From positions 7,502,001-7,566,000 of the forward strand of contig OZ296659.1 in NCBI GenBank assembly GCA_965655095.1: a stretch of DNA of 64,000 nt. The letters are read 5' to 3'. Source of the stretch: Haplodiscus bocki (lineage: Eukaryota). Both the position numbers and the translations under genes were made by a program. The notes below the pieces were generated by a model. It worked only from the letters and a program-made list of their open reading frames with translations. It ran no database searches and was not told the origin of the DNA. Position 1 is the stretch's first letter. Each line of letters starts with the position of its first letter. Of this stretch, positions 1,118 to 64,000 are shown one piece after another.

Positions 1118-1573
1118 TCACTTTGGAGTGGGTAAATTATGACCTAAGCAAGCTGAAAAGAGAGCAAGTATCCCTGATGCGAACCTATTGTCCGCCTCGC
1201 TAAATGTGAGTAAAGTTATACAAATAATGACAAGAATCAAAATAACTAAGTGATGAAATATTATGACGAGTAAAAACCGATGGAGCTTTAGATCGTCACC
1301 GCCGCAAAGGTTTACACAAAACGGTGGTCGCTCCTGATTATTTTCATCAAAAACAAGTCGATCGATGTTAAATTGAGAAATGTTTGCGAAATGAGGTTCA
1401 TCCACCACCTGTTGTTCTTGATCTACACAAAGCTTACTGTAATAACCACTGGAACGTTTCGATTCAACGTCTTGCATGGCAAAGAAAATGTTCGCTGGAA
1501 ACCTTGCCTGTGCAGTAGAAACCCAACCGTTTTCCACTTCGAATAAATTGAAATGGTTAGAACGGAAAGTCAT
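1118..1573 (-). CDS. Hypothetical element protein with a C-terminal hydrophobic segment
   Basis: 151-aa ORF with LLVIIFHHLVILILVIICITLL; abuts the ATPase gene and may be a fusion of two decayed ORFs. Confidence 0.35.
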   Translation of the reverse strand: MTFRSNHFNLFEVENGWVSTAQARFPANIFFAMQDVESKRSSGYYSKLCVDQEQQVVDEPHFANISQFNIDRLVFDENNQERPPFCVNLCGGDDLKLHRFLLVIIFHHLVILILVIICITLLTFSEADNRFASGILALFSACLGHNLPTPK

Positions 1574-1611
1574 CGAAATAATCAGGCTTCAAAAATTTCA
1601 TAACGTCCAAA

Positions 1612-1929
1612 TTATAATCCCGAAAACTGACCCAAAATCATGCTGTTTTTGAAATATTTTTCAGTAGTTAAGGTATAAACATAACCAGGTCCCACGTTGT
1701 TGACACTCCTTATAGAACCATAGGCATCATGAAAGATTGCATGCATTCGTAAAATTTTTGAAAACTTCAAGAAGTTGTGTGGAAGGCTGTCGCCTGCTCC
1801 AATATTGCCACCAAAAGATGCCCTTGAATTAAATCCATTCAAATCTATTGTTTTGTCTACATGGAGAGAAACTGCAAGAAAAACGTTTTTAGATATTGTG
1901 TTTTTAGGGAACCAGTATGTTACTTTCAC
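1612..1929 (-). CDS. Putative phospholipase A2-like (HD-x-Y) viral protein
   Basis: GGNIGAGDS...HAIFHDAYG resembles the parvovirus/adintovirus PLA2 pattern (GPG loop ... HDxxY). Confidence 0.45.
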   Translation of the reverse strand: MKVTYWFPKNTISKNVFLAVSLHVDKTIDLNGFNSRASFGGNIGAGDSLPHNFLKFSKILRMHAIFHDAYGSIRSVNNVGPGYVYTLTTEKYFKNSMILGQFSGL

Positions 1930-2008
1930 AAAGTTTTCGCAAATGTCCTTCGAAGAAAACCTTCAAGTAAGCAAGTTTGAGTTAGGAGAGGCGTGTCTCA
2001 GAACAAAA

Positions 2009-2866
2009 CTATTCTAAAAATGATGTATCAATAATTGTGTTCTCATTATAAACAGAAAAAAGCTGCGAAGCGTAGTTGTTGCCTTCTTGAGCCGTCGAAC
2101 CGATGATTTGAAGTGGCTGAGTCATATATTCGAAGCACGTGCATTGAGCATTTGTTACCCCCAAATTAATATCCAGTGTCCGGCTGTGTTCAGTTACGTA
2201 AAATCGCCCAAATCCTTTTTGAAGAAGATCAATGTATGACAATATGCTGTCTTTGAAAGGTGCATCTGAACTTTCAAGCTCGAGCAGACGTTGAAAAAGA
2301 AACAATGCTCTCTGACCCAACCGATTCTCCCAGTGAATTGTGTTTTTCGTACAACCACACACTTTTGAATTTGCAACCAAGTCCTTCTGTGGTATTCTGA
2401 TTGATGAGGGATTTCATCTTCTCGCCTCTTACTGAAATGGAATTGGCGGCTGATTTGTTCTTTGTTTCTGCTCTGAGAAAGTTTTCCGGATACGAGACTG
2501 TCATCAACTTTACATGCGCATTGTTTGTTGTCGACAGAACTTGAAGAGTAGTCTGCTTCCGAACAGTTTCCGCTTCAGCACAATCAGGAAGATAAAACAG
2601 AGTATGATGATGGTTCGAGGGCATCGTTTGGCAAATTTCTTCCAATTGCCCACAGCTGAATTCATTCTGAAGGTGTTCTCGGCTTAAATATTGAGCGAGC
2701 ACATGAGAATTTGTAGAGCATTGCACAGACTGGGAGGTATCGAATCAGGAAACGTATTCCGTGTAGTTTCAGAAAGCTTCTCAATAGTGGTAGTTTCGTC
2801 CGTATGAAACAGGAGCAACCAAAAGTTCGACGGAACTTCTCTCAAAACAGTTGTCATTTGTTTCAA
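2009..2866 (-). pseudogene. Two or three overlapping hypothetical ORFs of the same element
   Basis: ORFs 2009-2380, 2274-2726 and 2684-2866 are co-oriented, abutting and protein-like; no family recognised. Confidence 0.35.
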
Positions 2867-24200: not shown

Positions 24201-27200
24201 AAAATTCAATATGCTCAGACGTAGGACCTTTAGCGCCGCAGTCGCGTGCTTTTCTGATTCTTAAATGGCAATGGCACATTCAGTAGACCATGTGACTGCT
24301 GCGCTAAAGTCCTAGGTTCGAGCCAAGGACACTCCCTTCTTTCCGATAAAATCTAGGAACAAATGCGAGTTGTGAATGGATAGGAAAAAAGTCAGCAGAA
24401 GATTGTGATACAACAATTGCTTGCGCAAGTTTACTCAAATTTACCGGGAAGGGTATTTGCCTCTGAACTTTCCATTTTTAGCATTATTGAAAACAGTTTC
24501 CGTCAACAAAGTGACGTAGAAATAAGTGGTGCAGTATCCTACGTAATAGTAGCACATGCAATGTGCTGACGGACCTCGCAGAGAGACACAAGAGTCCGCC
24601 ACATACTTTCAGGTCTGGAAAAAGTCAACGACGTACCGATAAAATCCTTCCTCTTCGATATTTCGAAAAATGAAAGAGGTATCACTATAATATCGAAAAC
24701 TTTCGGCTTCGATATTAATAATAGGTTTTCATTAAAATGTGTTTTCGAATGCATCATATCAGGATATCTTCACTGCTAAGTGGAAAATTACAAAAGCCGA
24801 GAAACGTTCAGATTCAGACAACTATTAGCTTTTCTTTGGAGAAAGCAAGTGTTGGATTACAATACAATCGAGTTATCAAAAAAACTCAATCATTAAAATT
24901 TATCCACCAATTATCCACAGCAAAAATCTGTAAAAAAATTGTAAAAATTTCGACTTCAAAAACAGACCCACCCGACAGTAGAAGTCAACAGCTAGACGAG
25001 AAATACGTAACCAACTTTTGGGCGTTTTACATGAAGTGTGGATAGAAGATGTTCAAATAATTCATTGCTGAATTACCGAATTATCATTGTTGCGAGTTTT
25101 TTCATCAAATTTCGCTGATTATTTTCTCTGAGCCGCGCTTAACCGATCAGATGTCATCTTTACGAAGAATAAGCGCTAATAGCTGCCGTATTTCCCCGAT
25201 TACAAGTCTCACAATGAAATATAGGATTCCCTGATTTTTTTCACCAGACAATGTCCCTCAATATAGCTTACTTGGAAGTATAAGACCCAAACACCCTCAA
25301 CTTTTCTCAAGTGAAATCAACAACGAAAAGATCGAACGTTGAACATTTTCATTGAATTAACCTCTTTGCAAGACAAATCGTGAAAATTATTGAACATATA
25401 ATTGTTCAAATTTCTCTCGTCACAAACTTTTTTTGACAAATAGTAGTGTCAATTTGAGAAATAGAGCTGTGAATGACCGAATTCTGCAAATCAAAATAAA
25501 TAACAGGCACCAGAATTGTGCTTTTCCACTAATTTTTCGCCTCGAAGTCAGCCACCGAAGAGCGAAAATGACGCGTTTGATGAACAACTACAAGATACCG
25601 TCAAGAAGTATAACGACAATGATTTTACGAAAACGATGATGGGCTATTCAAATGCAGTTGGTAACACCACCGGTGCAGTTACAGAGAAGTTTGGTCTGTG
25701 ACATAGAAACGAAATAAGACAAAGACTTGTCGACTGGTGTCTGGAAAAAAAATATTTGTATCATCAACACATTCTTCCAAAAGAAAACTGAAATTGGATA
25801 ATTGGACCAGCCGAGATGACATACAAAGAAATGAATAGATTACACGATAGTTCCAACAAAAGAAAGGAAACCCATTCTGAACGTTGACGCGTGTCCAGCA
25901 GCCGGCTATTAGTTAGATCATGCACCGGTCATAGCCCGTTTCAGGTTTCGACTAAAACTTGAAAAATTTAAGGAACCATGAAGCAGATTTGTTTGGGACA
26001 CCTGCAACTATACACAATACACTGTCTAAAGAAATCGAAGAGGTTTTCTTCCTGGAACCATTTTGACCAAAATGAAACAATTAGTGAGAACGCGTTTCAG
26101 TCGTCAAAGCAACAAAAACACTGGATGAAAAGGAACAGTAGTAGAAACTTAAGAACCAACCGCAGCAGTGCCACAGTCTCAGTAAAGTCGTTAAACGTTC
26201 ATGCAACGAAGCAGAAGAGAACTTTCTTGCTGAATAACGCCGTATAATACAAGCTTGGTAGACATTAACACCCAAAGTCCACTGAGATTCTTTGGGTGTT
26301 AATTTCTACCAAGCTTGTATTATACGGCATTATTCAGCAAGAAAGTTCTCTTCTGTTTCGTTTTTGTTGCTTTGACGACTGAAACGCGTTCTCACAAATC
26401 GTTTCATTCTGGTCAAAATGGTTCCATGAAGAAAGCCTCTTCGAAACCGTTAGACAGTGTGTATAGTTGCAGGTCTCCCAAACAAAAGAACTCACTGGAT
26501 GCTGCAAGGAATGGAAGTCCTTCGGAGATCTAAAGTCAAAAGAGTAATAACTTTGCGTCAATGAAACAGAAATCAATGAAAGATGGGAAGGATATATCAC
26601 TGAGTTATATGACGACCCTGCAGAGTAAATCAGCCGATAATCTTTCGAAAATCTGACATTGTATTCTTCGAACGAAAAAACGACGCAATCAGAAAGACAA
26701 AGTTGAATAAAGAAGCCGAACCTGATAATAACTACTCTGAAATGCGCCGTCCAATGGAAGATGATAGGGAGTTTTTACATAAAACCTTTAACCAAACTTA
26801 TGAAAGCAGCACAATCTTTTCCTAGTGGAAAGAATCGAAGTTTGTAAAACTGCCCAAAAAAAGTTCATCAAATCACTACGAAGATCATAGAACAATCAAT
26901 CTGTTTTGGAACGGCCCTACATTACTGACCAGAATCTACCTGAGAAGGCCCAAAGAAGAAATGGGAAGCAGTTTTGCCACTGCAAAATTCAGTTTCATGC
27001 CTGACAGCGGCAATAGATATGCAGTCTTCACAGTCAACAACATTATCTGAAGTCCAGTCGGATCTATAAATATGCTTCAATGATTACAAGAAGACTCTGA
27101 ATAAAGTCCAACACAACAACGAACTAATCCGCATTCTGAAAAATATAGGTCTAGACACCAAGAGACCTGAGACTACTCCAAAACACATATTATGACCAAG

Positions 27201-34800: not shown

Positions 34801-37800
34801 TAGCTTGGGGAAGCGAAGGAGTAAATAAGCGCGAATAAAAATAAATAAGATTTGCCTTTCACTCTATCGCTCAGCTCGGTGGCAGGACAAGAAAAACAAA
34901 GACCAAAATACCCAAGCCCAAAACACCCAAAGTATCTAAGCCTAAAATACCCAAGGCCAAAATACCCAATGTTACAAAATACCTAAGATTTGAAGAGCCA
35001 TAGTAATTAAATAATTAGCAGCGTCTTGAACTAAAAGTTTCAAGACGCCTTTAATTATTTATGTCTATTGATGTTTTAAACTATTGACGCTGACATAATA
35101 AAATACCACAAGTCAAAATATTCACAGAAAATTACGTTGAACAGAAAACAGCCGCGAAGTTCAAAAACTTGGGTATACACAGGGTGTACCCCACAAAATT
35201 TTCGGCAGAGATAAAATTGTAATTCACTCCACACAATTTTCGGCAGTGTGAGGCAAAATTGTGATTCTTGTCACAAATTTTTCGACACTGTGAGACAAAA
35301 TTGTAATTCACCTCACAAATTTTCGACACTGAGACAAAACTGTACTTCACTTCTCAAAATTTTCAACTCTGTGATACAAAATTCTAATTCATCCCACAAA
35401 ATTTTCGTCATCGTACGGAATTTTGACCTTCGGTATTTTGGGTGTGGGTATTTTGGAGTGGAACCGAATAAAATACCACAAGTCAATATTACCTTGAACG
35501 GAAAAACATTCGTGAAAAATTCAAAACTAGTTTTCTTTTTAAAAAATAAACGGACACTTGCATTTCCAAAATTCAGTATTTTTTCTCCAAAAACATTCAC
35601 ACAATATAATTTTCTAAAAATTGTAATTCACCTGCTTTTCGCCACTGTGATACAAAATTGTAATTCACTTCTCAAATATTTCGACAGTGAGAAAAAATTA
35701 TGACCCCCAACAAAATTTTCGGTTCTCTGGAAAACTTTACATTTCAAAATGGTGAAATTTTGCGAAGTTGATCCTAGATGTGGTTGTAAATTTGTACAGT
35801 GTGTTTATAATGGCGTATAGAAGTTTATTGAAAGAAGCAATAATATTTAGCATCGTAATTATGATATCTATTATGTAATTATGCAACATTCAAGTATTTT
35901 GGGTACTTTTGATGTTAAGACGCTTTTAATTATTTAATTGGTATTGTTGTTTGAATCTTGGGTATTTTGGCCTTGGGTATTTTGGGACATTAGGTATTTT
36001 GACTTTGGTGATTTTGGACTTGGGTATTTTGGGACTTTGGGTATTTTGATTTGGGTATTTCGGGCTTGGGTATTTTGGGTTTGGGTATTTTGGGTTGGAA
36101 CCGCTCAGCTCAGCCTTGCTCAGTCATGCCAGCGAAGAAAGAAGTAACATTTTTAAAATCTAGAGGCATTATGCGAAGGTTAATGCCTAAACACAAAGCG
36201 AAGCCGAACTTCGCAACACATTCTGATTTTTCAGTAGAGACCAAGGGTCCCGAAAGACATTTAAAACCATGATCGGAGATGTGATTGACACTTTAGAAAT
36301 ACCATTCTAGCTGTTAATAAAAAGTTTGTTCGAAAAAGTCAAATTGAGACAAGTACCTGTCACAGGGTCTCACTCAAGTTGATGTCAATCAGGTCTTTTC
36401 GTGTACGACATTTCGCTGCCCAATTTCTAAGAAGTTGGTACAGTAACCAACGCGAAAATGAACAAATTTCTGTCACAGAGTTTCAATAAAAAATGATATT
36501 TGAATCATGTCTTTTCAAACTACCCCATTTTGCCGCCCAATGTTTACGAAGTTTGTACTGTAAGAAAAACGTGAAAATGAACAAGTACCTGCCTAAAGGA
36601 AGACGTTTTCTCCCGTTTGAAATAGATGAATAGACTCTTTGTGGACGTCAGAAAAAGCAGGTTTTGAACATAAAAAAATAGGGCATAAGTTGACTGCAAT
36701 ACATCTCGCAGTCAGAACATGTAAAAGTCGAACTTTTTCGGTTGCAGTTCAAGACTTGCTGCACCCTCCCCTAACTGAGAATATAAGGGGAAATGTACAT
36801 TATTCTCGCTCTAGAGACGACACATGAGAACTTAGAATTCCGTCAATTACAGTGTCTTTAAAGAAGAAAAGTCATCATAAAGCACCGATTAAAAATAGGG
36901 ACTACTTTTCCAAAAATTGTGCAATTAAAAATTCGGATATGACAAATGTACCGGCAGGGTGACCTCGTCGTGGCACCATGTTAACTTGTTGACCCTGCTG
37001 TAACCCAGAAGCAGCAGCGACGGCAGCTGGGTTCGAACCCGCCACTCCGGCGTGACTCAAGAGTCCCATAAGACCACTGGGATGTCCTCCAAAGGAAATT
37101 GGATTGCCCGGAGTGGCCCCACCTGACCATAGATTATCAAAATTGTGTTTCATAAAGATCAGTAACATGTGAGTTTTTGATAAATTGAAGAACAAAGAGC
37201 AATCTTTTAATTAAAGGGTCAATTGAATGTGATCTTTTCACTTTACCAGTTGAACGTTTATCCTTGGAATTTAGAGATTGGACTTGTACACATCATTGAA
37301 TCTTTGACAAAAATGAACACTAATTTTAACTTTTCGTTAAATTTTATGCTTCGGCAATCGTCCAAGAAGTCTAACTTATAAAAATAAGCTTAAAAGGACC
37401 TGCATATTGTAGGCTGACCAAGCCTAAACATTTCAAGTGTAAATGCGCTGCAACGCCTCCAAATATTGAATAGAAAAACTTCGACAGGAGGAAAATCGAG
37501 AAGATTTGGTTTTTAGTATTTTCACCCACTGACAGTTAGTACATGTAGTTCGGATTAACAGTTGTTCAAATTGATGAGTCATAGCGAAACAACTTATAAT
37601 TGGTTGATAATTTTATTTTTGATAATCGGTGCGGGTGATGACCTGACATGACAGGGGGCCCGAGTGTGAAAGTGCCGAGACATTTGGAGAGCAGGGAGTT
37701 GACGAGGTAGAACTGCACATCGCATTGGGCAGTTTCGATTGTGGTGAAAACCGATTTGTCCACACAGATACTCAGACGGTAGCTGTTGTTCGCGTTGAAA

Positions 37801-50779: not shown

Positions 50780-51170
50780 TGGCCGATCGCTCAGTTAATC
50801 GATTGTTCAACGAGCTGATTTTAGCGCACTTCTGAAAAACTATTGGCTGAAGTAGTATGACTTGGTTACGAAACAAATACGAAATATGAGCAATGCAAAT
50901 TTGTTCAATAGCACAGTCGGTTAATTGAGCGGTCGGCTATTTATACGGTACCCGCTTAAAACTGTATGATAATTAAATGGGGTGCCGTTTAATTAGCCGA
51001 CCACTCAATCAACCGAATGTGCTATTGAACGAATTTGCATTCCGCGTATGTAACTTCCCTTCCGTTCATCGCTCGGAAATTTTACGAAACCGAACCTCGC
51101 TCGCTCAGCCAATAATATTCAAGAAACATGCTAAACTCGGCTCATAGAACAATCGGTTGAAAAAGCAGTC
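50780..51170. repeat. Foldback/MITE-like inverted repeat
   Basis: Inner arms ~50894-50939 and ~50993-51040 (gcaaatttgttcaatagcaca... / ...tgtgctattgaacgaatttgc) with weaker outer arms. Confidence 0.6.
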
Positions 51171-52088
51171 GTTTAGGTGATGAGTCACCAATTAAATAAC
51201 CGAAGATTTGACGACGAACAACTAACCCCTCATCTTCGGAACAAAAAAGGCCACAACTTCCGTTTTTGGATGCTACTGTCAAAATAATTTTTGAACGCAT
51301 AGTTATGCAAGCTCGGAACACACAACGCAAGGTATAATTTGATGATTCAAAACCTACAGCAACCATGGTCTACAGCAACCACATGCTTTGAAAATTGTTC
51401 AACTTAATAGTATTCGATAGCTTAGTTCACGCTTGTTTATTTTATTTGATCGTTAAAGGGTAGATGCCATTTGAAATAACTTTTATCAAGAACTTTGAAG
51501 AAGAAAAACACAAAACTCAGTAACGGGTGAAAGAAAGCTGAAACTGATCTATCTCAAACATATGCACTTGACTTGATTGACAGACAGTCCATTTAGAACC
51601 CGAAAGAAAAACGATATTAAAGGCACAAGACACTAGTGCAGCATAGGTACCGATGGGGCACAAAAATTTTTGTGGAAATGAACTGAGTACTTTCAGTCGG
51701 CGATTCAGTGATTTTACTACAGAGGCGAAGCAGAACTTCGCAACACATTCTGACTTGTCAGTTGAGATCAAAAATCACAATTATGCAGCAAAAGACATTT
51801 GAAACCATGATCAGAGATGTCACTGACACTTTCAAAAATATTAAAGCAGATGTCAATCAAGAGCTTGTTCGAAAAACTAAAATAAGACAAGTACTTGTCA
51901 CAGAATCCCACACTCAACAAGTTGATCTGTGAATCATGTCTTTTCAGGTTAAGCCACTTTGCGGACCATTTTTCAAGAGACGTGAACAGTAAACACTGCA
52001 AAAATGAGCATTATACAGCCCGTATTGATTTATTTTTAGAATACCACCAATATCACACTACTTAGTGTTGTCTGGATGGAAGCCAATC

Positions 52089-52213
52089 ATATAGGTGCGG
52101 ATTATACCAGTCAAATAATACCAGTAAAAAACTATGGTAGCCAAACCCGATACCGACTTTGACTACCATAACTTTTAATGGTATTATTTGACTGGTATAA
52201 TCCGCACCTATAT
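52089..52213. repeat. Near-perfect 125-bp palindrome (about 56-bp arms, 12-nt loop)
   Basis: atataggtgcggattataccagtcaaataatacca...tggtattatttgactggtataatccgcacctatat. Confidence 0.9.
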
Positions 52214-52719
52214 CACGTACCAGAAGAATTATAAATTTTTTTTACCATACCTGTTTTTCTCCACCATATAATTTAAGAAAGCGGCTATATATAATTCCAC
52301 ATTTACGTAAACATAAAATTGTGAAGCAATGGTAAAATGAACTCGCACGTGTATTTTTACGTTTAAAAACATGTATACAAAAACAAGCATTTCCTTTTAT
52401 TCATGGCCTCCTAATAGCCTAGTGGTATTTGTTCCATTGACTAAAGTTAAGGCTGTGCTTGCATAGTCATCGTGTTTGTGGTTCACGATTATCCAACGTC
52501 CCACTGTCTCTGTAACATCACGCGCAAAAGCTATATGGAGGAACTGTCCACGTTATGGAGCTTGAAAAAGTAGAATTGATCGACGGGGATATCCACCAGG
52601 AATGCTCCCTCGCTAGACAGCTGAAAAACTCGACACGAAAGTTGGCCAGTGGATATTTTTGTCTTAATATGAAAACACGATTTCTGAGAAATACACACAT
52701 TATGACAACATACCTTAAA

Positions 52720-52985
52720 AATGTACAGATTATAAAATTTTAAGCTACAACAAAGTGTGATATGTCATTGGATAGCCCGTTAAAAGTTTAGTTAACCCTG
52801 AAAATTTCAGCCTTGTAACTATTACCATCTTCGAGAAAAGTGATCGTTAACACTTTGCTTAAACATGTAGAGATTATAAAATTTTAAGCTACATCAAAGT
52901 GCGATATATCATTCGATAGCTCGTTAAAATATTAGTGTACGTTCAAAATTTCAACCCCGTATCTATTATCATTTTCGAGAAATCG
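52720..52985. repeat. Two-copy ~145-bp tandem duplication at the edge of the viral region
   Basis: atgta(c/g)agattataaaattttaagctaca..aaagtg.gatat.tcatt.gatagc.cgttaaaa at ~52721 and ~52865. Confidence 0.7.
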
Positions 52986-53222
52986 ACAAAATAGTATTTG
53001 TAAAATTAAACTTATTGATACAAGTATACGAATAAAAATACTAGTATTTGTATGCATGTAATTATACCTATCAACATTGTGGATTATTATATAAATACCA
53101 TTGGCGACATGCAAAATGAAATGAATTTCTTCGGTCATTGCAATATGTTTGAATATAATCACAATTTTGAAAAAGTGACGACAACAATAACGTCAACAAT
53201 GTAAAGTTTTAATATTATAAAA

Positions 53223-53681
53223 ATGGAGTATCTTTGTCAAAGATGTGATGAATTTATTTATGATGAATACTCCATTAACAATCCAAATCTCAATGACAAT
53301 GATAAAATAATCAATAATTATGTCACCATTTATAATAAGAAGTTCGATATATATTACATCAAATGTGATTTCTATTTAGTATCTAACAATGATTTTGGAA
53401 TACATATAAAAACTCATTATGTTCATAACAAAGACGACTTGACCAAAATAAAGACAGAATTATTATTCAAGCTCGAACTTCTCAAATATGAAGGATATAG
53501 TTTTTGTTTCATTAATGAAATGATCATCAAAACCATTACTGATACACACTGGATGACATATACAACTTACATGCAAAAACCTATGCCTATGGTGGAAAGA
53601 AGATTCAACTATGTTTTTCAAAAATGTCCATTTTTAATCAGAGCATTAGATCATAACAAAAATTCTCATATAGAATTATAA
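53223..53681 (+). CDS. Hypothetical element protein, N-terminal CxxC, motif MTYxxYxxxPxxMxE
   Basis: 152-aa ORF; paralogous to 53836-54405. Confidence 0.6.
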   Translation: MEYLCQRCDEFIYDEYSINNPNLNDNDKIINNYVTIYNKKFDIYYIKCDFYLVSNNDFGIHIKTHYVHNKDDLTKIKTELLFKLELLKYEGYSFCFINEMIIKTITDTHWMTYTTYMQKPMPMVERRFNYVFQKCPFLIRALDHNKNSHIEL

Positions 53682-53835
53682 GATATTATTTGTATACCAT
53701 ATTACATTGTGGATTATTATATGAATACCATTGGCGACATGCAAAATGAAAAGTATTTCTTCGGTCGTTGCAAGGAGTTTGTATATCATCACGATTTTGA
53801 AAAAATTGACGATGTATTATTGGGATATGTATACA

Positions 53836-54405
53836 TTATCTATTTCTTAAAATCTGTTTAAAATCGTTGTTGGGTTCAGTTGGAGTGTTATTTAACCAAT
53901 CACCTCTGACACAAACTAAACGATTATTGGGGTCTATTATACCGAATCCATAGTATTTAAGTATTAGATATTCATAATAAGGAGCTTTACTGTATTCAAG
54001 TATTCTTAATTTTTCTGGATATTTATCAAGATTTTTGATCAACAAGGTTTCTAACATAGCTTTGGGTTGTGATATATAGTAATTAAAAGACATATCTTTT
54101 CTATTTGAATAAAAATTAAACTCAACATTTATCTTTTCATCTTTATCGTAAAATTTTAATGAAACGCGTTTGGGGTAACCCATGATTTTTTTGTTATTAA
54201 TTTTACATACAATTAAAAAAGAATGAAATTTCCGTTTATGTTTTTTAAATATATTAGAAAGAGTGTTATCAATTTCATTAACAAGTATGATTTCTTTTTT
54301 GTATATATATTTAACTCCAAACGCTTTTTCTAAATGAAAATTACGACGATGTTTTCTGAAATAATTGTCCGAATAATCTCTGTTACAACTTTGACAATGT
54401 CTCAT
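53836..54405 (-). CDS. Hypothetical element protein with N-terminal C2H2-like finger; paralog of 53223-53681
   Basis: CQSCNRDYSDNYFRKHRRNFH; MSFNYYISQPKAMLETLLIKNLDKYP. Confidence 0.6.
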   Translation of the reverse strand: MRHCQSCNRDYSDNYFRKHRRNFHLEKAFGVKYIYKKEIILVNEIDNTLSNIFKKHKRKFHSFLIVCKINNKKIMGYPKRVSLKFYDKDEKINVEFNFYSNRKDMSFNYYISQPKAMLETLLIKNLDKYPEKLRILEYSKAPYYEYLILKYYGFGIIDPNNRLVCVRGDWLNNTPTEPNNDFKQILRNR

Positions 54406-54684
54406 TTGAAAGAAAGAAATAGTCGATGTCTTTAACGACGATTTTGAAGTTCAATTTTAAAAAATGCATATAAAATGAACATTAAAACGAATTTACTTGA
54501 AGAATACATCAACTTTGTCGATAACACAAAGAAACAAAATAGATACTTTAAATTAAGTATATTCTTAATTGTTATAATTTTTTTTCTGTTTTTGTTTCTT
54601 GTTTTATTTAAACATCTTACAAAGTAATATTCGTACAAGTATAAGAATACAAGTAAAAGAATACATGTTATTATACAATATTAA

Positions 54685-55132
54685 ATGAATAACAGTTTTT
54701 CTCTGCAACAAATACCAAAAGCAAGCAATCTCGATGCTAATCTAATATCTCGACAATACAAATTAAATCTTATGGCTGATTTTATGAAGGTCAAATATGA
54801 AAACCCGAAAATGAAACAATCTGAGATTGCAAATCAATTAGGTATCTCTTCTAGCACCATACAAAGATACAGAAACGATATAAATATGCTTTCACCATAC
54901 AGGATTAGCGCAAATAACACCAAAAAACGATCAAAAAAGGCTAAAAATACTGATTTTGAGAACGATTCACACCACGAAGCTGATGTTAAAAGACCTCAAA
55001 TGACCTCAAAAGACCCCAATCGGCATCAAATGAAAATAGCAAGAAAACAAAAACAATTTACAAGGTGGATCTGTACAAGAGAAAATTGACGAACACTATT
55101 TAGATAAAGTTCTTAAGAATAATGATAGATGA
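54685..55132 (+). CDS. Helix-turn-helix DNA-binding protein (C-terminus frameshifted)
   Basis: MKQSEIANQLGISSSTIQRYRND is a canonical HTH; the shifted tail reads NLQGGSVQEKIDEHYLDKVL. Confidence 0.75.
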
Positions 55133-55407
55133 ACTCTTACACGTGTAATTATATCTTTATATTCATACTCATAAAACATGAATACATATAATTATAAGAG
55201 TATTTATGCCAAAGATATACTTACAAATATACGAGTAGTTATACAATCATACCAATTATGTGATATGTATAAATATATGAGTACTTATACTTGGGTATAC
55301 TTACAATTATACGAATAGATATAACAAGTATGATGAATATAATATTAATAATTATATCATTATTCATATTTGAATAATTGTAATTATACTAAAATATGTC
55401 TTCTTAA

Positions 55408-55641
55408 ATGGAATTAGCTATGCAAATTATTTCTAGTGATAAAACAGTAAGAATTGATACAGTGAAAGATTTAAAAGAATTTAACTCTCAATCTTTAGCA
55501 ACACAGGCAAAGAAAGGCGAGCAATTAGTTAGTATGATGCCTGCTATTAAAGAAGCTTTTGATTTGTTGGGTGATGATATAGTTGATCTATCTACAGAAA
55601 ATGATGCTTTAAAAAGTGAAAAATGGCTTGAAGAATCTTAA
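55408..55641 (+). CDS. Small coiled-coil hypothetical protein (probably continues to ~55724 after a frameshift)
   Basis: ORF with TAAATG start and heptad-like VDLSTENDALKSE. Confidence 0.5.
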   Translation: MELAMQIISSDKTVRIDTVKDLKEFNSQSLATQAKKGEQLVSMMPAIKEAFDLLGDDIVDLSTENDALKSEKWLEES

Positions 55642-55758
55642 AACAAAATGTCAAAACAGATTGATGATGAAAAAAGAGCAAAGTTAATCATGTCTAGAAT
55701 GAAAAAACAAATGCAAAAACATTAATTTTCTTATACTTGTACAAATAATATTGTATAA

Positions 55759-56172
55759 ATGGCTTATATTAGTTATACCAAATTATGGGAAAGTGAATTT
55801 GATGGCATCGTTTCGAAAAGAGATAAATTACAAGATTTGAATATTAATCAATTAAAACTCGAAGTACACGATAGTTATAAAAAAGATGAAAAAATAACAA
55901 CAAATTTTGAACCTATCGATAACTCAGATGTTATAAACAAAGGTTACCTAGACGATAAATTATTAAAAATAAACAGTCACTTATCAAAATTAGTAAAAGA
56001 TTTCAACGAATTTAAATTACAATACAACAAACAAAGTGTAGAAGATATTCTAATTCAAAGAGCTGTGAAAACAACGATACAAATACTTCATGATAAAGGT
56101 TTATTTGATAATTATGCTAATGCTGATAAAGTTTTAGAAGATTTTTTTGTTTACAACAAGGAGAAGAGGTGA
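55759..56172 (+). CDS. Fibre-like/coiled-coil protein; 5'-truncated copies at ~57771-58156 and ~63174-63556
   Basis: EPIDNSDVINKGYLD resembles the P..xxDAxNKxYVD neck motif of viral fibres and is followed by a coiled coil. Confidence 0.5.
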   Translation: MAYISYTKLWESEFDGIVSKRDKLQDLNINQLKLEVHDSYKKDEKITTNFEPIDNSDVINKGYLDDKLLKINSHLSKLVKDFNEFKLQYNKQSVEDILIQRAVKTTIQILHDKGLFDNYANADKVLEDFFVYNKEKR

Positions 56173-56189
56173 TCTATCCGACCAAGTAA

Positions 56190-56602
56190 ATGATGGTGTT
56201 CAATGAATTTATTAAAGAATACAAATTAAAAAATAAAGCAACATCAAATATAAAAATTCAATAAGTCCTGACTTCTATAGGATTAGACAATGTTACATCT
56301 ATCCAAGGGACGGATCGTTCTCCAGTGATATCGGAATAGTCAATTTGCATCCATCTCTAGGGACACATTGGGTTGTGTACATAGACGAAAATTATTTTGA
56401 TAGTTACGGTTGTGTTCCTCCTAAAAAGCTATCTAAATTTATCATAAAACGAAAAGGATATTGTTTATATTCAGAATACCAGATTCAAAAAAATGATAGT
56501 TTTTGCGCAAGTTTTTGTTTATATATACTTTACCTGACAGAAGTGTTAGGTATTGATTTTAAATCTGCTGTTTTGAATTTGTATTATCAGAGATTTTCAT
56601 AA
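56190..56602 (+). pseudogene. Adenain-like cysteine protease, copy 1 (premature stop and frameshift)
   Basis: MMVFNEFIKEYKLKNKATSNIKIQ* then GTHWV, YFDSYG, QIQ, FCASFCL. Confidence 0.85.
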
Positions 56603-56762
56603 AAATTGTTTTTGTACAATTATACTATTATCCTTATAAGAATAGATGTAATTTTACTAAATTGACCAATCACAAATAAGTTAAATTATTCATACAAGTA
56701 TAATAATAATTATAAAATTATTCGTATTTGAATAAGTGTAATTATACAATTAAATATTATAA

Positions 56763-57202
56763 ATGACATTGAGAAAAATAACTATTGATAATAGTGTTAG
56801 ATATATTCCAAAAATCCAAAAAAAACCATAATTCCAAAAAGAAATATAAAAATTACAAAACTCTAAACAATATTAGAATCAGTAGACAGTATCGTTATCA
56901 TTGCAACTACGTCAACTTCGGTAACTCTATCGATTACTGGTATAGGTTTGATTATTTTACCAATATCGGCTGGAATTGCTTGTACTCTATCATTAGGTAA
57001 CAAAATATTACATAAATTAATCAAAAACAAATATAATAAATATAAAAAACAATATGAACGAGATCAACAAACTATTAAATCTTTCGACAAATTATACAGA
57101 AAACCATTACAAGATAATGTAATCGATAAAACTGAATATGAAAGTCTTTGTAATATTTTTACTAAATATGTTGACGAAAATAAAGATGAATCTTTTTTAT
57201 AA
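56763..57202 (+). pseudogene. Chimeric relic: start of the basic protein fused to the body of the membrane protein
   Basis: MTLRKITIDNSVRYIPK (cf. 58678) joins at ~56810 to sequence nearly identical to 62218-62607. Confidence 0.75.
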
Positions 57203-57371
57203 ATATGAACATAAAAATAAAATTAAACTTTTTTAGTCAAAATAAATTAAAATTTCATCCTAGAACTTAAAAAAACGTTTATGTTTAATATTAACTGTTC
57301 TATTCAATGATATTGCGAACAGTTCTGTTCTGTTCAATGATAATATGATTATGAACTGTTTTGTATTTTAA

Positions 57372-57772
57372 ATGGAGAAGAATAAAAATTGTTCTGTACG
57401 TAACATAAAATTAGATATAAATAATTAAAAGAAAGATAGAACTGTTTGTAAGGATTGTTATAATAAAAAGAAAAGAAAAAACAAAATCACTATTTCTCAT
57501 CAACAACCGATAATTGAAAACGGTAATAATAATAATACCAATCGAACATTTTTGGTTGGACCAACTTTTTCAGGTAAAACATATTTGATGTTAAAAATTC
57601 TTTCGCGAATGATAGATCGAGATATTTATATAATTACTAAATCACCTCCAGAACAGTATACCAATTCCAAAATCAAAATCAAAGAAATAAGCGATGAAAT
57701 TAAACCTCTAAACGAATATGAAAACGGTATCATAGTTTTTGATGATATTTTAGGCTCATCAAATAGCAGATC
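57372..57772 (+). pseudogene. Zn-finger + A32-like packaging ATPase, truncated after Walker B (second copy 62778-63175)
   Basis: In-frame MEKNKNCSV(R/C)...CKDC (one TAA), then LVGPTFSGKT (Walker A) and IIVFDD (Walker B); the sequence then jumps into the fibre-like gene. Confidence 0.85.
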
Positions 57773-58257
57773 GTTTCTAAAAGACATAAACTACAAGATG
57801 CTAATATTAGTCAATTAAAACTCGAAGTACATGATACTTATAAAAAAGATGAAAAAATAACAACAAATTTTGAACCTATCGATAACTCAGATGTTATAAG
57901 CAAAGGTTACCTAGATGAAAAATTGTTAAAAATAAACGGTCACTTATCAAGAATAGAAAAAGATTGCAACGAATTTAAATTACGATATAACAAACAATCT
58001 GTAGAAGATAATTTAATTCAAAGAGCTGTGAAAACAACGGTACAAATACTTTATGATAAGGGATTATTTGATAATTTCCAAAATGCTGATAAAGTTTTAG
58101 AAGATTTTTTGTTTACAACAAGACGTAGAGGTGATTTATCAGAAGATAATACATAATTAGATTTATAACACACGGATAAATACAATTATTGTTTGTATTT
58201 ATATGAGTAATACATAACTATATGTATATTTATACATACAATTATATGAGTGTTTAA

Positions 58258-58671
58258 ATGATAACATTCAATGATTTTATTGAAAATTATAAATTAAAAA
58301 ATAAAGCAACGTCAAATATAAAAATTCAACAAATCCTTTCGTCTTTGTCTTTGAATAATGTAGGGATCTATTTAAGAGACGGACCTTTTGAATCTGATAT
58401 AGGGATTGTAATTTTACATCCATCAAAAGGTACTCATTGGGTTTGTTATATAAATGAAAATTATTTTGATAGTTATGGTTGTGTCTGTCCAAAGAAACTA
58501 TCTAAATTTATTATAAAAGGAAACGGATATTGTTTATATTCTGAATATCAAATTCAAAAAAATAGTAGTTTTTGCGCTGGTTATTGTTTATATATAATTT
58601 ATTTGACAAAAGTTGAAGGTATTGATTTTAAATCTGCTGTTTTGAATTTGTATTATCAGAGATTTTCGTAA
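58258..58671 (+). CDS. Adenain-like (clan CE) maturation protease, intact; third copy from 63660 to the window end
   Basis: Catalytic H (GTHW), D (YFDSYG), oxyanion Q (QIQ) and C (FCAGYCL). Confidence 0.9.
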   Translation: MITFNDFIENYKLKNKATSNIKIQQILSSLSLNNVGIYLRDGPFESDIGIVILHPSKGTHWVCYINENYFDSYGCVCPKKLSKFIIKGNGYCLYSEYQIQKNSSFCAGYCLYIIYLTKVEGIDFKSAVLNLYYQRFS

Positions 58672-58677
58672 TATTAA

Positions 58678-58875
58678 ATGGTATTAAGAAAAATAACTAT
58701 TGATAACAGTATTAGATATATTCCTAAAACTGAAAAAACAAAAGAAAAAGAGATTAAACCAAAAACAATAAAAGCTGGTTCACATCCTCGTAAACAGAAC
58801 AAAAAAATTTCACGAAATAGTAAAAAATTCCTTCAAAATGTAGCAGCAAGTGGATTTGGAGTACTTACAAAATAG
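58678..58875 (+). CDS. Small Lys/Arg-rich core-like protein
   Basis: 65 aa, very basic, C-terminal AASGF possible cleavage site. Confidence 0.55.
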   Translation: MVLRKITIDNSIRYIPKTEKTKEKEIKPKTIKAGSHPRKQNKKISRNSKKFLQNVAASGFGVLTK

Positions 58876-59022
58876 TATGTACATGTATAAGAATATCCGT
58901 ATCTGAATACGTGTAAATACACTTTATCAATCAATCGCAATTACAAATAAGATAACTTATTCATACAAGTATAAGAATGTTTTTAGTTGAATACGTGTAA
59001 TTATGCAATATTGATATTATAA

Positions 59023-60093
59023 ATGAATAATGAATTGTTACTTTTAATTAAAAAACATACTGATACATTAATAGAACAAACGAAAACAAAACCCCAAGAG
59101 ACTCTTGAATTCAAAATGAATAAACAAATGCAAACTTTTTCGTTTAATCCTCCAATAAATTTAGTTGAAGAAGGTAAATGGTTATTAGGAGTGTCCTTGT
59201 TTGATTGTACAAATTCTGTTTTCAATATAACTAACGAGATCAATTCGTTTTCAATCATTATACCAGGTCATTACCAAAACAAATCTGATGAAAAAACTAT
59301 TGACGATCTAAATAAATTATTACAGCTCAAATCTCTTGAATTACATGTAGACGAAGTTGGAGAAAGAGGGAATAAAATAAAAATAGGAGATGTTGAATAT
59401 CAGTTATCAGATTTTGATACTCAAAAAAAAATGAGATACTTGAAGAATTTAAAAATGTTAAATACAACGATCTTGAAGATTTAGTTCACAGAATGCGATT
59501 AAGTTATGATGAAATTATGGATATATTAGACTTGAAATATATTTCTACAAAAAGAACAGGATATTCGGTAAATCCGGGTATTTATGAAGTAGTTGATTTA
59601 AACAACACTTTAAAAAATATTTTACCCGATAATGTGAAAGTAAGTGTTACAATAGATGATGTTAGATTAAAATCAAATTTAAAAACTAATCAAACATTAA
59701 TTTTCACTGAAAAGTCTTTCTTTTATACAATTTTAGGTTTTACTCAATCACGATCGTATCCGTTAGATGATATAGATGGATTTTATCAATTGATTGCAGG
59801 ATCATACAGAAGCGATAGACCTATTAATATTACAGGACTTGATAAAATTCATTTAAAATGTGATTGTTCACAAGGATCGATCGTAAACGGTGTTCGAGAA
59901 CCTATTTTATACTCTTTTGCTTTGTCTTCACCCCCTGGTCATAAAATATACAAAGAACCAAGAGTCAAACTTTTTAAAAAAATAAAAAAATCTGTTCTAT
60001 CTTATATTAATTTTTAATTTGAAGATGACGATCACAAACCTGTTGATTTTAATGGAGAAACGATATCGTTTACATGTCAACTAATTAAAATTT
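59023..60093 (+). pseudogene. Minor capsid (penton-like) protein 1, frameshift and stop
   Basis: FNPPINL..GKWLLGV, PGIYE, IHLKCDC..GSIVNG...ILYSF....PPG.KI..EP, then EDDDHKPVDFNGETISFTCQL; Polinton mCP pattern. Confidence 0.8.
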
Positions 60094-60498
60094 ACAATTC
60101 ATATTTTTTTACATAAAAGGATACTTGTAATTATATGAGTTTTAAATGAAAACACAAAGACAAATAAGTTAAATTATTCATACAGGTATAATAATAATTA
60201 TGTTAAATATTCGTATTTGAACAGGTGTAATTATACAATATTAAATATTTACGCATAATTATGTTCAGACGAACAAGTTAAATTATTCAAACAAGTATAA
60301 TAATAAGTATACTATTATTCGTATTTGAATATCATTTGTAACACATACAATTATATGAGTAATTATACTAGGATATACTTACAATTATATGAGTAGTTGT
60401 ACATATGTTGCCTATTTGTTATACATACATTTTTATGAGTATTCATACTAGGGTATACTTACAAATATATGAGTACGTATTATAATTATACAATAAAA

Positions 60499-61613
60499 AT
60501 GAATTTAAATATGATCAGACCTAAAAACGAAACAGAAGATTCATTACTTTCAATAACCAAAAATTGTGAAACGCTAATTGAACAAACCCATAGAAAAGCT
60601 GAAGAAACGTTGAAATTCAAAATGATTAAACCAAGAGAAACATTTCATTTCAAACCACCAATTCACGTCAAAGGCGATTGGATGATTGGATTAACGGATT
60701 TAGAAGTTTATAATTCTATTTTTAATATAACAGAAAAAAATAATAAATTCGAACTATACAGAAATAGTTCAAACAAGTTTGGATTTTTAGAATTAAAAGA
60801 TGAGCTTGAAGAGATCTTTAATATTTCACATATTTCACAAGAACATCTCCTAGATGATGAAATAGGACCGCGTATTATTGATGAATTTCATAAATTATCG
60901 CATGAAAAGCAAAATAATGATGGTTATATGATATTATTACTGGGTTATAGCAGATGACTATTTCGAGATTTCGAAAGTTATTTGAGAATTGTAGTTGGTT
61001 TAGATGAAGAAGATATTCAGTTAATTTTAAAACAATATAATTCACATTTTACCACTTATGAACTAACTCTGGGGATTTATACAATTCAAGATATTTCAGA
61101 CACTATTCATACTTTCAGTGGTCATAGTGAGATCATAGAAATTGGATATGATGATATTGCCATGAAAACCAAAATTATTTTAAAATACAAAGGTGGACAG
61201 GATAAATTCGATTCAGGAACGTTGCGATTTGATGAAAGATCTTTTTTCATACATTGTTAGGTTTTGAACCATATTGGGATTATAAACCTACAAATTCTAA
61301 TCACGTTGCTATTCCGGGTGTTTATACTAGTGATAAAATGTTAAATTTAAGTACCACAAATAAGATTCACTTAAAATGTGATGTTATCGATGGTTCGGTA
61401 GTCGATGGTGTTAGACAACCGATTTTATATAGTTTTGTATTAGATAAATTACCCGAATACAAAGTGTTTTGTGAGCCCGAAACAGTTCATTATAAAAAAA
61501 TAAATAAAAGTATTTTGAATACTATAACGTTTTATTTCGAAGACGATAATAACACCGAAGTCCATTTTAATCAAGAGGTGTTAACTTTTACACTACAAAT
61601 GATTAAAATTTGA
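60499..61613 (+). pseudogene. Minor capsid (penton-like) protein 2, stop and frameshift
   Basis: FKPPIHVKGDWMIGL..LEVYNSIFNIT, GIYTI, IHLKCDVIDGSVVDGVRQPILYSF, FNQEVLTFTLQMIKI. Confidence 0.8.
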
Positions 61614-61648
61614 ACAAACATGTTTACACATAATTATTTGTATAATAA

Positions 61649-62061
61649 ATGAACTCTCAAAAATTCAAAACTAATAGTTATTGTGTTGGTGGTAAACACT
61701 ACAGTGGGACAAAAAATATCACTGGTGAGATAACATTTAATAAAAAAACCGGTAAAGAGATTAAGTTATTAGTTGGAAAATGTGTTATTTGTGATTAAAA
61801 AAATCTATGATTGTGAGTGATAATACGATACAAGCAGAAGGATTAGGTGATTTCTTCACAAAATTGGGGAGGATCTCCGGTAAAGCAGCTAAAAAATTAG
61901 CAACTAATGCTCTCAAGAATCCATCTAGATTCCTTGAAATCGGTGCGAATGTTGCTGCTGTGACCGCAAGTAGAAATCCTAAAGCAGCTTTATCAGCATT
62001 ACCTGAAGTAATTAATTTCTATCACACAGGCAAAGGCCTCTATCTTGGAAAATTTGTTTAA
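61649..62061 (+). pseudogene. Zn-ribbon-like N-terminus plus amphipathic membrane-lytic-like protein (break at ~61795; C-terminal ORF 61807-62061 open)
   Basis: YCVGGKH...GKCVICD, then AEGLGDFFTKLGRISGKAAKKLA and C-terminal TGKGLYL. Confidence 0.55.
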
Positions 62062-62076
62062 GTTTTTATATAATAA

Positions 62077-62607
62077 ATGGACCAAAAAACAGATAAATTA
62101 TACCCATCAGCACCATTATTGGAAAATATTGATTTAGAAAAACGATTAGAAAAGAAAATTAATGATGTTAACAGTTTTAATAACCATGTTAATGATATTA
62201 AAGAAATGATTACATATTTCAAAAAAAACCATAAATCCAAAAAGAAATATAAAAATTATAAAACTCTAAACACAATATTAGAATCAGTAGACAGTATCGT
62301 TATCATTGCAACTACGTCAACTTCGGTAACTCTATCGATTACTGGTATAGGTTTGATTATTTTACCAATATCGGCTGGAATTGCTTGTACTCTATCTTTA
62401 GGTAACAAAATATTACATAAATTAATCATAAACAAATATAATAAATATAAAAAACAATATGAACGAGATCAACAAACTATTAAATCTTTCGACAAATTAT
62501 ACAGAAAACCACTACAAGATAATGTAATCGATAAAACTGAATATGAAAGTCTTTGTAATATTTTTACTAAATATGTTGACGAAAATAAAGATGAATCTTT
62601 TTTATAA
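62077..62607 (+). CDS. Polinton-type membrane protein with hydrophobic hairpin and N-terminal LYPSAP motif
   Basis: 176 aa; coiled coil, IVIIATTSTSVTLSITGIGLIILPISAGIACTLSLG, C-terminal LQDNVIDKTEY. Confidence 0.7.
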   Translation: MDQKTDKLYPSAPLLENIDLEKRLEKKINDVNSFNNHVNDIKEMITYFKKNHKSKKKYKNYKTLNTILESVDSIVIIATTSTSVTLSITGIGLIILPISAGIACTLSLGNKILHKLIINKYNKYKKQYERDQQTIKSFDKLYRKPLQDNVIDKTEYESLCNIFTKYVDENKDESFL

Positions 62608-64000
62608 ATATGAACATAAAAATAAAATTAAACTTTTTTAGTCATAATAAATTAAAATTTCATCCTAGAACTTAAAAAAAACGTTTATGTTTAATATTAA
62701 CTGTTCTATTCAATGATATTGTGAACAGTTCTGTTCTGTTCAATGATAATATGATTATGAACTGTTTTGTATTTTAAATGGAGAAGAATAAAAATTGTTC
62801 TGTATGTAACATAAAATTAGATATAAATAATTAAAAGAAAGATAGAACTGTTTGTAAGGATTGTTATAATAAAAAAAGAAAAAACAAAATCACTGTTTCT
62901 CATCAACAACCGATAATTGAAAACGGTAATAAAATAAATAACAATCGAACACTTTTGGTTGGACCATCTTTTTCAGGTAAAACATATTTGATGTTAAAAA
63001 TTCTTTCGCGAATGATAGATCGAGATATTTATATAATTACTAAATCACCTCCAGAACAGTATACCATTTCTAAAAACAAAATCAACGAAATAAGCGATGA
63101 AATTAAACCTCTAAACGAATATGAAAACGGTATCATAGTTTTTGATGATATTTTAGGCTCATCAAATAGCAGATCGTTTCTAAAAGACATAAACTACAAG
63201 ATGCTAATATTAGTCAATTAAAACTCGAAGTACATGATACTTATAAAAAAGATGAAAAAATAACAACAAATTTTGAACCTATCGATAACTCAGATGTTAT
63301 AAGCAAAGGTTACCTAGATGAAAAATTGTTAAAAATAAACGGTCACTTATCAAGAATAGAAAAAGATTGCAACGAATTTAAATTACGATATAACAAACAA
63401 TCTGTAGAAGATAATTTAATTCAAAGAGCTGTGAAAACAACGGTACAAATACTTTATGATAAGGGATTATTTGATAATTTCCAAAATGCTGATAAAGTTT
63501 TAGATTTTTTGTTTACAACAAGACGTAGAGGTGATTTATCAGAAGATAATACATAATTAGATTTATAACACACGGATACATACAATTATTGTTTGTATTT
63601 ATATGAGTAATACATACAACTATATGTATATTTATACATACAATTATATGAGTGTTTAAATGATAACATTCAATGATTTTATTAAAAATTATAAATTAAA
63701 AAATAAAGCAACGTCAATTATAAAAATTCAACAAATCCTTTCGTCTTTGTCTTTGATTAATGTAGGGATCTATTTAAGAGACGGACCTTTTGAATCTGAT
63801 ATAGGGATTGTAATTTTACATCCATCAAAAGGTACTCATTGGGTTTGTTATATAAATGAAAATTATTTTGATAGTTATGGTTGTGTCTGTCCAAAGAAAC
63901 TATCTAAATTTATTATAAAAGGAAACGGATATTGTTTATATTCTGAATATCAAATTCAAAAAAATAGTAGTTTTTGCGCTAGTTATTGTTTATATATAAT

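Follow-up and report, generated by a model that had tools for sequence, protein, structure and literature searches.

A decayed Maverick/Polinton in the Haplodiscus bocki genome with predicted poxvirus-type late promoters, from a likely virophage lineage

The window analysed here is the whole 64,000-nucleotide stretch at positions 7,502,001 to 7,566,000 of Haplodiscus bocki contig OZ296659.1 (GCA_965655095.1). Its right part belongs to a Maverick/Polinton copy of 36.5 kb in total, which runs from 52,085 to 24.6 kb beyond the window edge; a first-pass annotation of the same DNA had placed the start at 53000. The element is bounded by TIRs of 754 bp (96% identical), with an additional TIR match of 312 bp lying inward of this block (52858-53169, 94%), and is flanked by a 6-bp target duplication in which 5/6 bases match. 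The sharp composition shift noted earlier was recovered at the left boundary, where GC drops from 37% in the host to 26% in the element. The host genes said to adjoin it were only partly found: none of the 67 frames searched in the left flank (30-52 kb; 75 frames listed) matched Pfam and no host gene was identified there, while an RBX1-type exon is located ~10 kb past the right end. The features within the window are as follows.

52079..52084 (+): left target-site duplication, GAAGCC; the right copy, GAAGTC, is 24.6 kb beyond the window edge
52085..52838 (+): left TIR, 754 bp, 96% identical to the right end; opens with a 125-bp hairpin
53223..53681 (+): CxxC-family accessory ORF, 152 aa; without a TAAATG start in the window copy
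53836..54405 (-): second CxxC-family accessory ORF, 189 aa; 20% identical to the first and convergent with it
54685..55089 (+): helix-turn-helix protein, HTH_24 above cut-off; TAAATG start, T at -10
55408..55641 (+): conserved ORF, 77 aa (112 aa in sisters); TAAATG start
55759..56172 (+): conserved ORF of 137 aa (sisters: 144 aa) with weak likeness to fibres; TAAATG start
56190..56602 (+): first copy of the protease, disrupted close to its start; only 80% identity to those in the array
56817..57769 (+): partial array unit, with the 3' part of the hydrophobic-hairpin ORF and the ATPase N-terminal half (Walker A, B); left side fused with the beginning of the basic ORF
57770..63172 (+): tandem unit 1 of 4, 5.4 kb; at its left junction the ATPase half is fused to the fibre-like ORF
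58258..58671 (+): adenain-like cysteine protease, 137 aa, open frame with catalytic His/Asp/Gln/Cys; TAAATG start
58678..58875 (+): basic 65-aa ORF, 18 K+R, core-protein-like by composition only; TAAATG start
59023..60017 (+): penton-1 (356 aa in sisters), broken; single jelly roll with a helical insertion; TAAATG start
60499..61613 (+): penton-2 paralogue (~370 aa in sisters), broken near residue 250 in 4/4 units
61649..62061 (+): Cys-rich and amphipathic-helix ORF (a single ORF of 132-139 aa in sisters), disrupted around residue 50 in 4/4 units
62077..62607 (+): 176-aa ORF with a hydrophobic hairpin (Kyte-Doolittle 19-mer 2.08); TAAATG start
62778..63172 (+): N-terminal half of the unit 1 ATPase, disrupted close to its start and truncated by the unit junction
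63173..64000 (+): beginning of tandem unit 2, with a fibre-like fragment and the second array protease

Most of the proteins named in the first-pass annotation could be confirmed. The unusually compact protease of 137 aa has its catalytic residues (His60, Asp71, Gln100, and Cys106) invariant in 8/8 aligned proteins, and its profile matches adenain (E 4.8e-5); the window protease alone matched no Pfam family. The two pentons are paralogues with ~34% identity. A fold model of a sister penton-1, built with an alignment (pLDDT 75, against 37 for a single-sequence fold), matches the Mavirus penton (E 6.7e-9, TM 0.33), and penton-2 is assigned by its identity to penton-1 only. Programmed frameshifting in penton-2 was ruled out, the sisters having one open frame of 349-372 aa. 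The HTH accessory gene and the ORFs read as the basic core-like protein and the two membrane-active proteins were likewise found, the latter being the amphipathic-helix and hydrophobic-hairpin ORFs. Neither of these two had a Pfam or PDB match, and they are candidates at most for the GasderminX and Cupiennin homologues of the beta-type adintovirus virion module. Other claims held in part. The ATPase is A32-type, but only its N-terminal half is present, joined to the fibre-like ORF; the fibre-like ORF is conserved, but its likeness to fibres is weak (hhalign probability 8%); and the co-orientation of the genes is interrupted by the CxxC pair, a family with no Pfam or PDB assignment.

The module is not an intact gene set. 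Most ORFs are broken, and 62,220-64,000 is a 98% duplicate of 56,817-58,598 within a four-unit array of a 5.4-kb, locus-specific unit that was broken before it was duplicated. The junction of the ATPase half with the fibre-like ORF occurs four times in the genome, always at this locus, and penton-2, the amphipathic ORF, and the ATPase have breaks common to all four units. The 24.6 kb beyond the window hold units 2-4, the remaining ATPase, MCP, integrase (minus strand), pPolB pieces, and the right TIR. Divergence is 1.3-1.95% between units and 4% between the TIRs. The genes would thus have been broken first, and the 5.4-kb segment then duplicated in the chromosome, probably by unequal crossing-over, to give four units. 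That the locus or its array is an assembly artefact is very improbable, given the matching target duplication at both ends, the 72-105 mostly private substitutions in each unit, and contigs from two samples that continue out of unique flanking sequence into the TIR and show 0 differences. What speaks for an artefact is that no public contig bridges the two internal junctions (the contigs are too short, so this gap proves nothing) and that the contigs crossing the host junction extend just 30 bases into the element, one fewer than our criterion requires. The window copy is dead, decayed and internally amplified, and in itself an ordinary dead insertion.

Seven sister copies reveal the intact form of the element. 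They are 18.4-19.2 kb long, the window copy being longer because of its tandem array, and all have the same gene order, two pentons, and a ~137-aa adenain-like protease. Their TIRs are 861-1,374 bp at 93-99.7% identity (7/7), and the 6-bp target duplication is perfect in 6/6 scored and visible in the seventh. In sisters, pPolB was detected with DNA_pol_B_2 (E 3.9e-15 and 7.9e-22), the integrase with rve (E 7.5e-12), the packaging ATPase with Pox_A32 (E 1.3e-7), and MCP with PF21738 (above cut-off); MCP matched nothing in PDB by sequence. The counterparts in the window element are homologous broken pieces of pPolB beyond 64 kb, a truncated integrase ORF (85% identical), an ATPase gene split by the array, and two MCP pieces beyond the window (82% identical). 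The family therefore has the TIRs, 6-bp target duplication, pPolB, RVE integrase, A32-like ATPase, adenain-like protease, MCP, single jelly-roll penton, and, in the sisters, the length (~15-20 kb) of Mavericks/Polintons. The earlier observation that the window lacks MCP, pPolB, and integrase was correct, and since all three, and the right TIR, are found just beyond its edge, the element cut by the window edge is a full Maverick/Polinton rather than a reduced Polinton-like virus; the proposal of a divergent integrated virus with a morphogenesis module stands as to integration, module, and Polinton class.

The family is very common in this genome and includes a young subfamily with copies 96-100% identical (40/40 scored); in an acoel genome, Mavericks make up 4.5% according to the part of PMC6451197 consulted. 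Queries with MCP, integrase, ATPase, and pPolB detected no close outside relatives among the viral contigs scanned, in line with the earlier suggestion of a poorly described lineage. The metagenome scan returned two short contigs, both with TAAATG at the MCP start, which at 83-84% identity are too close to be independent. Two coral-metagenome runs contained short pieces only, and no habitat is claimed from them.

The unusual feature of the element, missed in the first-pass annotation, is its poxvirus-type start signals. Across 13 genes in 8 copies, TAAATG is found at the gene start in 80/104 gene-by-copy slots, which are not independent as the copies are related, compared with 204/5,543 (3.7%) of other ATGs. 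A T exactly 10 nt upstream accompanies 59/77 start-like but 57/174 non-start TAAATG, and is present in most copies for 10/13 genes; it is mostly missing in penton-1 (1/6), penton-2 (1/5), and the amphipathic ORF (0/7). The hexamer overall is not over-represented (69 seen vs 66 shuffled), and counts of the early promoter (AAAAnTGAA) and early terminator (TTTTTnT) are near shuffled values. Stop-start coupling was rejected as a source of TAAATG, as in 0/80 cases was the TAA the stop of an in-frame upstream ORF of at least 40 codons. The vaccinia late promoter, as described in the sections of PMC11980589 consulted, consists of TAAAT and then a G overlapping the start codon, with a conserved T at -10 in a T-run. 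The element gene starts match this pattern (TAAATG with a T-run centred at -10) and are predicted to be promoters of the late type.

The same genome provides a control in a second Maverick lineage, with a protease of 189-231 aa (~137 aa in the window lineage), in which TAAATG occurs at 1/38 homologous starts and 2/59 long ORFs, although this lineage is GC-richer (41%) than the promoter-bearing ones (both 25-28%; host 37%) and the comparison is thus unmatched in composition. Its start contexts are purine-rich. These data bear on a helper-free alternative, in which an AT-rich nuclear transposon carries the motif as a signal read by the host, either as a TATA-like core promoter directly next to the ATG or as an in-frame stop that guards translation. 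Many starts read TATAAATG, the elements are AT-rich, no helper genes are seen in the genome, and copies are recent and near-identical, all in favour of this alternative; against it, the T at -3 and the T peak fixed at -10 are features of vaccinia late promoters, a Maverick lineage nearer the host in GC uses purine-rich contexts, and a sister lineage with the same motif carries rpo18. Were a TATA box to touch the ATG, the 25-30 nt that usually separate it from the start site could not be accommodated, which counts against the TATA-like version. We consider a host-read signal unlikely.

The rpo18-carrying third lineage has a capsid only 22% identical to that of the window lineage and the same promoter (T at -10 in 60/80 vs 64/225). 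All ten rpo18 loci examined carry this other capsid, and rpo18 is absent from 8/8 window-type copies, so for the window lineage it is evidence of an indirect kind. Matches to PF03293 were detected at at least 150 places in the genome, and the one rpo18 tested matches vaccinia rpo18 (E 7.8e-15). The two lineages are not isolated from each other: 7/10 rpo18-lineage elements share subterminal DNA with the window element (~80%), and the hydrophobic-hairpin ORF has a counterpart in the rpo18 lineage (27-28% identity). Among the families searched, no poxvirus gene other than rpo18, which lies inside Mavericks, was recovered from the genome; searches for D13, VLTF3, poly(A) polymerase, rpo35, and D5 gave 0 matches each, 4/5 of them run without a positive control.

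The shortage of poxvirus hallmarks in the genome would suit a helper of another kind, i.e., a cytoplasmic replicon with a pox-like polymerase (of linear-plasmid type, or a distant poxvirus relative), for which the yeast pGKL elements, with a TAAAN initiator and polymerase slippage, are a precedent in the portion of PMC6211774 consulted. This is rather unlikely, since the subunit that was captured has its match in the poxvirus rpo18 family, and specifically in vaccinia rpo18, and the ATG-overlapping TAAATG with a T at -10 is, in the sources as far as consulted, described for the poxvirus late class. Alternatively, the promoters could be a relic of an ancestral poxvirus association in a family that now spreads by transposition alone, which would agree with the many copies, the young subfamily at 96-100% identity, and the missing trace of a helper. 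Against a relic, which we regard as improbable, gene starts retain the motif in copies that have diverged by 10-30% in their genes, in recently exchanged accessory genes, and in young copies whose TIRs are 99.7% identical; this points to selection that is still acting. The near-identity of the young copies fits within-genome copying as well as repeated infection.

Gene starts at TAAATG with a T-run at -10 suggest that this decayed integrated Maverick/Polinton represents a lineage of virophages whose genes are read by the RNA polymerase that a co-infecting pox-type virus supplies, a reading to which we assign a probability of about 0.62 on sequence grounds. We infer that the helper is likely a pox-type virus not yet seen in this host. 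In a helper-infected cell, the element genome would reach the cytoplasmic factory, where the late transcription machinery of the helper would fire nearly all element genes, pPolB and integrase included. The genome would be copied by pPolB from the terminal repeats, particles would be built by MCP, the two pentons, ATPase, and protease, and the integrase would insert the linear genome with a 6-bp duplication. Co-replicating lineages would swap modules, which would explain the gene-by-gene mosaic. More tentatively, and in our view with odds somewhat against it, two or more unrelated capsid lineages of integrating Mavericks in this host could be endogenous virophages of an undiscovered invertebrate poxvirus, forming a module-swapping guild with common terminal DNA and late promoters, in which the rpo18 of one lineage might bias the helper polymerase and germline copies might serve as an inducible antiviral reserve. 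If so, the promoter signature would make it possible to recognise helper-dependent Mavericks across animals by sequence.

A helper-specific promoter bears on the expression and spread of Mavericks in animals; virions of these elements have not been seen, according to the part of bioRxiv 10.64898/2026.06.19.733378 consulted. Here such a promoter, recognised in the sequence, divides the Mavericks in a single genome into lineages of host type and of poxvirus type, and predicts a poxvirus-like virus in a host where our searches found none. The openly accessible main texts covered describe poxvirus-associated PLVs in moths, but none reports a Maverick with poxvirus late promoters or rpo18.

Among known systems, the closest by gene content are the Mavericks/Polintons (adintoviruses, Polintoviricetes; PMC8097293, PMC8502044, bioRxiv 10.64898/2026.06.19.733378). 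In the sections consulted they are alike in TIRs, 6-bp target duplication, pPolB, RVE integrase, A32 ATPase, adenain-like protease, DJR major capsid, penton, and the length of our 18-19 kb sisters, and likewise swap modules between lineages. The window family differs in its two pentons, ~137-aa protease, HTH gene, TAAATG and -10 T promoters, and termini, which are (AAT)n as opposed to (AGT)2 in the vertebrate Maverick; the word 'promoter' is absent from the main text of PMC8502044 and of the preprint. The entomopoxvirus-associated AHEV_PLV1/2 and CBEV_PLV1, found in occlusion bodies of moth viruses and proposed to be poxvirus parasites with mosaic genomes (Barth et al., PMC11296320, as far as consulted), are likened to the window family by description, having a protease, ATPase, basic core-like protein, and terminal repeats. 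They are ~12 kb with a tyrosine recombinase or none, whereas the window family is 18-19 kb with an RVE integrase, and the main text of that paper contains neither 'promoter' nor 'TAAAT'. Mavirus, Sputnik, and PgVV/Gezel-14T (bioRxiv 10.1101/2022.07.28.501842, in part) use the promoter motif of their helper, Mavirus and Sputnik the late one, and the modelled penton fold of a window-family sister matches that of Mavirus. Their helpers are mimivirus-type giant viruses of protists, whereas the motif of the window family is poxvirus-type and its capsid PF21738. The predicted promoters of the window family sit on an integrating element that encodes no RNA polymerase, unlike those of vaccinia, yet share with the vaccinia late promoter (PMC11980589, in part) both the TAAAT-G overlap with the start codon and the -10 T in a T-run.

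The window occupies C12:7,502,001–7,566,000 of the 1.5-Gb genome. The genes named in the first-pass annotation, a virion-morphogenesis module of a Polinton-like virus at 53–64 kb, were recovered by ORF listing and six-frame translation, and translation of this interval showed that the majority are broken. The reported composition shift was reproduced (26% GC in the element background vs 37% on the host side). The lack of MCP, pPolB and integrase also held within the window, but all three were found, along with the right inverted repeat, in the neighbouring 50 kb, past the 64-kb edge where the annotation had proposed to look (numbering continues past 64,000):

52,085–88,622, whole element, flanked by GAAGCC and GAAGTC
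80,646–81,876, MCP in two pieces, past the window edge
82,101–82,724, minus strand, integrase, past the window edge
about 83,300–87,200, pPolB in several pieces, past the window edge

The terminal inverted repeats (TIRs) of the element are 754 bp long and 96% identical. At the host junction, contigs of two samples reach 30 bases into the repeat from the unique flank with no differences, which is suggestive only because it is one base short of our bridging rule. A 125-bp hairpin (52,089–52,213; 41-nt arms, 98% complementary) lies at the outermost start of both TIRs; it is absent from the sister copies and seems to have arisen when the terminus was duplicated locally.

Used as genome queries, the protease, the TIR and a stretch of the MCP yielded ~5,000 first-look candidates apiece, 40 of which were scored, and these figures are not copy numbers. 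Seven sisters of 18–19 kb were picked by TIR pairs. Their gene order is HTH, unknown, fibre-like, protease, basic, penton-1, penton-2, amphipathic ORF, hydrophobic-hairpin ORF, ATPase, unknown, MCP, integrase (opposite strand) and pPolB, with PF21738, rve, DNA_pol_B_2 and Pox_A32 above the Pfam cut-off. His, Asp, Gln and Cys are retained in the protease, whose profile matches adenain, and a fold model of sister penton-1 (94-row alignment) matches minor capsid proteins, the Mavirus penton among them. Which sister is nearest varies with the gene, and pPolB and ATPase each occur as two types; judged from these gene sequences, the family is thus a mosaic. Every Maverick defining feature that was tested was found, and the element is a dead, locally amplified copy of this known class, whose lineage is a variant with late promoters of the poxvirus type.

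The amplification is evident from 56,817–58,598, which recurs as 62,220–64,000 at 98% identity within an array of one partial and then four 5.4-kb units. The units diverge by 1.3–1.95%, mostly through private changes, vs 4% for the TIRs; all four have the same breaks in penton-2, the amphipathic ORF and the ATPase; and the unit junction has four genome matches, all at this locus. From these observations we infer that the array probably arose by chromosomal amplification after the element's death. The fibre-like and protease copies furthest to the left share only 80–90% identity with the array copies, suggesting that two family members may already have recombined to form the element.

Another copy of the family, older than this one, lies 14 kb downstream (G000:C12, about 7,604,000–7,636,000; loci L014, L015, L068 and L069); it is 66–73% identical and more decayed, with its own tandem arrays (3.55-kb and 1.5-kb periods). 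An RBX1-type RING-H2 exon (L014:4701–4991, minus strand) sits about 10 kb past the element's right end. On the host side, inverted-repeat elements and short tandem repeats (25,988–26,486; 34,900–36,100; 50,884–51,049) are probably non-autonomous transposons.

TAAATG stands at 16 curated starts of the window's element, and 12 of these also have T at −10; the two CxxC genes start without the hexamer. Across 13 genes in eight copies, TAAATG occupies the homologous start in 80 of 104 slots; an automatic nearest-ATG count gave 80/99 (7 further slots without an ATG) vs 204/5,543 for other ATGs. Stop-start coupling as the source was ruled out (0/80 starts), and the hexamer has no overall enrichment. 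The upstream T fraction is highest at −10 (0.75), where a homology-free count found T at 59/77 starts vs 57/174 non-start TAAATG; most copies have it for 10 of 13 genes, the exceptions being penton-1, penton-2 and the amphipathic ORF. In vaccinia late promoters, as described in PMC11980589, TAAAT plus G overlaps the start codon, and the tenth base upstream is a conserved T amid less conserved Ts. Signals of the early class did not show up.

Two repeated intergenic palindromes, TATTC-N6-GAATA (13 vs 0.4 in shuffled sequence, a count inflated by the array) and TACTnA-N8-TGAGTA, occur at 55,361, 56,719, 60,316, 60,376 and 60,456 and, past the window edge, before MCP and integrase. Three sit 18–28 nt ahead of a TAAATG start, and sisters have 0–2 exact copies each; they are possible candidate sites for the HTH protein.

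As a control, a separate Maverick lineage with 41% GC, represented by 8 loci from the same genome, has TAAATG at 1/38 homologous starts. A remnant of that lineage (ATPase, penton, integrase) occupies window positions 1–2,750 and locus L067. The element encodes no RNA polymerase gene, and virophages are described as bearing their helper's promoter, late in Mavirus and Sputnik and early in PgVV (10.1101/2022.07.28.501842). The simplest reading, to which we give a probability of roughly six in ten, is that a co-infecting pox-type virus would supply the late transcription machinery for the element's genes. Alternatively, the motif may be a signal read by the host, the promoter may be a relic, or the helper may be a non-poxvirus whose initiator is similar, such as that described for yeast pGKL (PMC6211774).

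PF03293 (rpo18) matched at least 150 places in the genome (150 scored of 456 candidates), and one tested protein matched vaccinia rpo18 at E 7.8e-15. The ten rpo18 loci examined all fall in a third lineage, which has a single penton and whose MCP is 22–23% identical to that of the window's family; none of eight window-type copies has rpo18. The third lineage has the same promoter pattern, a 57% identical integrase, and accessory genes and a short protease in common with the family; seven of its ten elements also have subterminal DNA in common with the window's element (about 80% identity). Five other poxvirus families had no match in the genome, four of these searches being run without a positive control. 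Five third-lineage elements (among loci L092–L101; contigs C2, C12, C1, C7 and C8) carry rpo18 twice, near each end and in opposite orientation, and three rpo18 matches spaced by about 5 kb (G000:C3:12,680,048–12,690,562) suggest what may be another internally amplified element.

The literature covered (including PMC8502044, PMC8097293, PMC11161782 and PMC11131425) held no report of poxvirus late promoters or TAAATG in Polintons/Mavericks, nor of rpo18 in virophages; notes on promoters, or related sequences, may be present in supplements. Poxvirus-associated PLVs are known from moths (PMC11296320, whose main text leaves promoters unmentioned). These are described as about 12 kb long and without an RVE integrase, whereas the sisters here are longer and encode rve.
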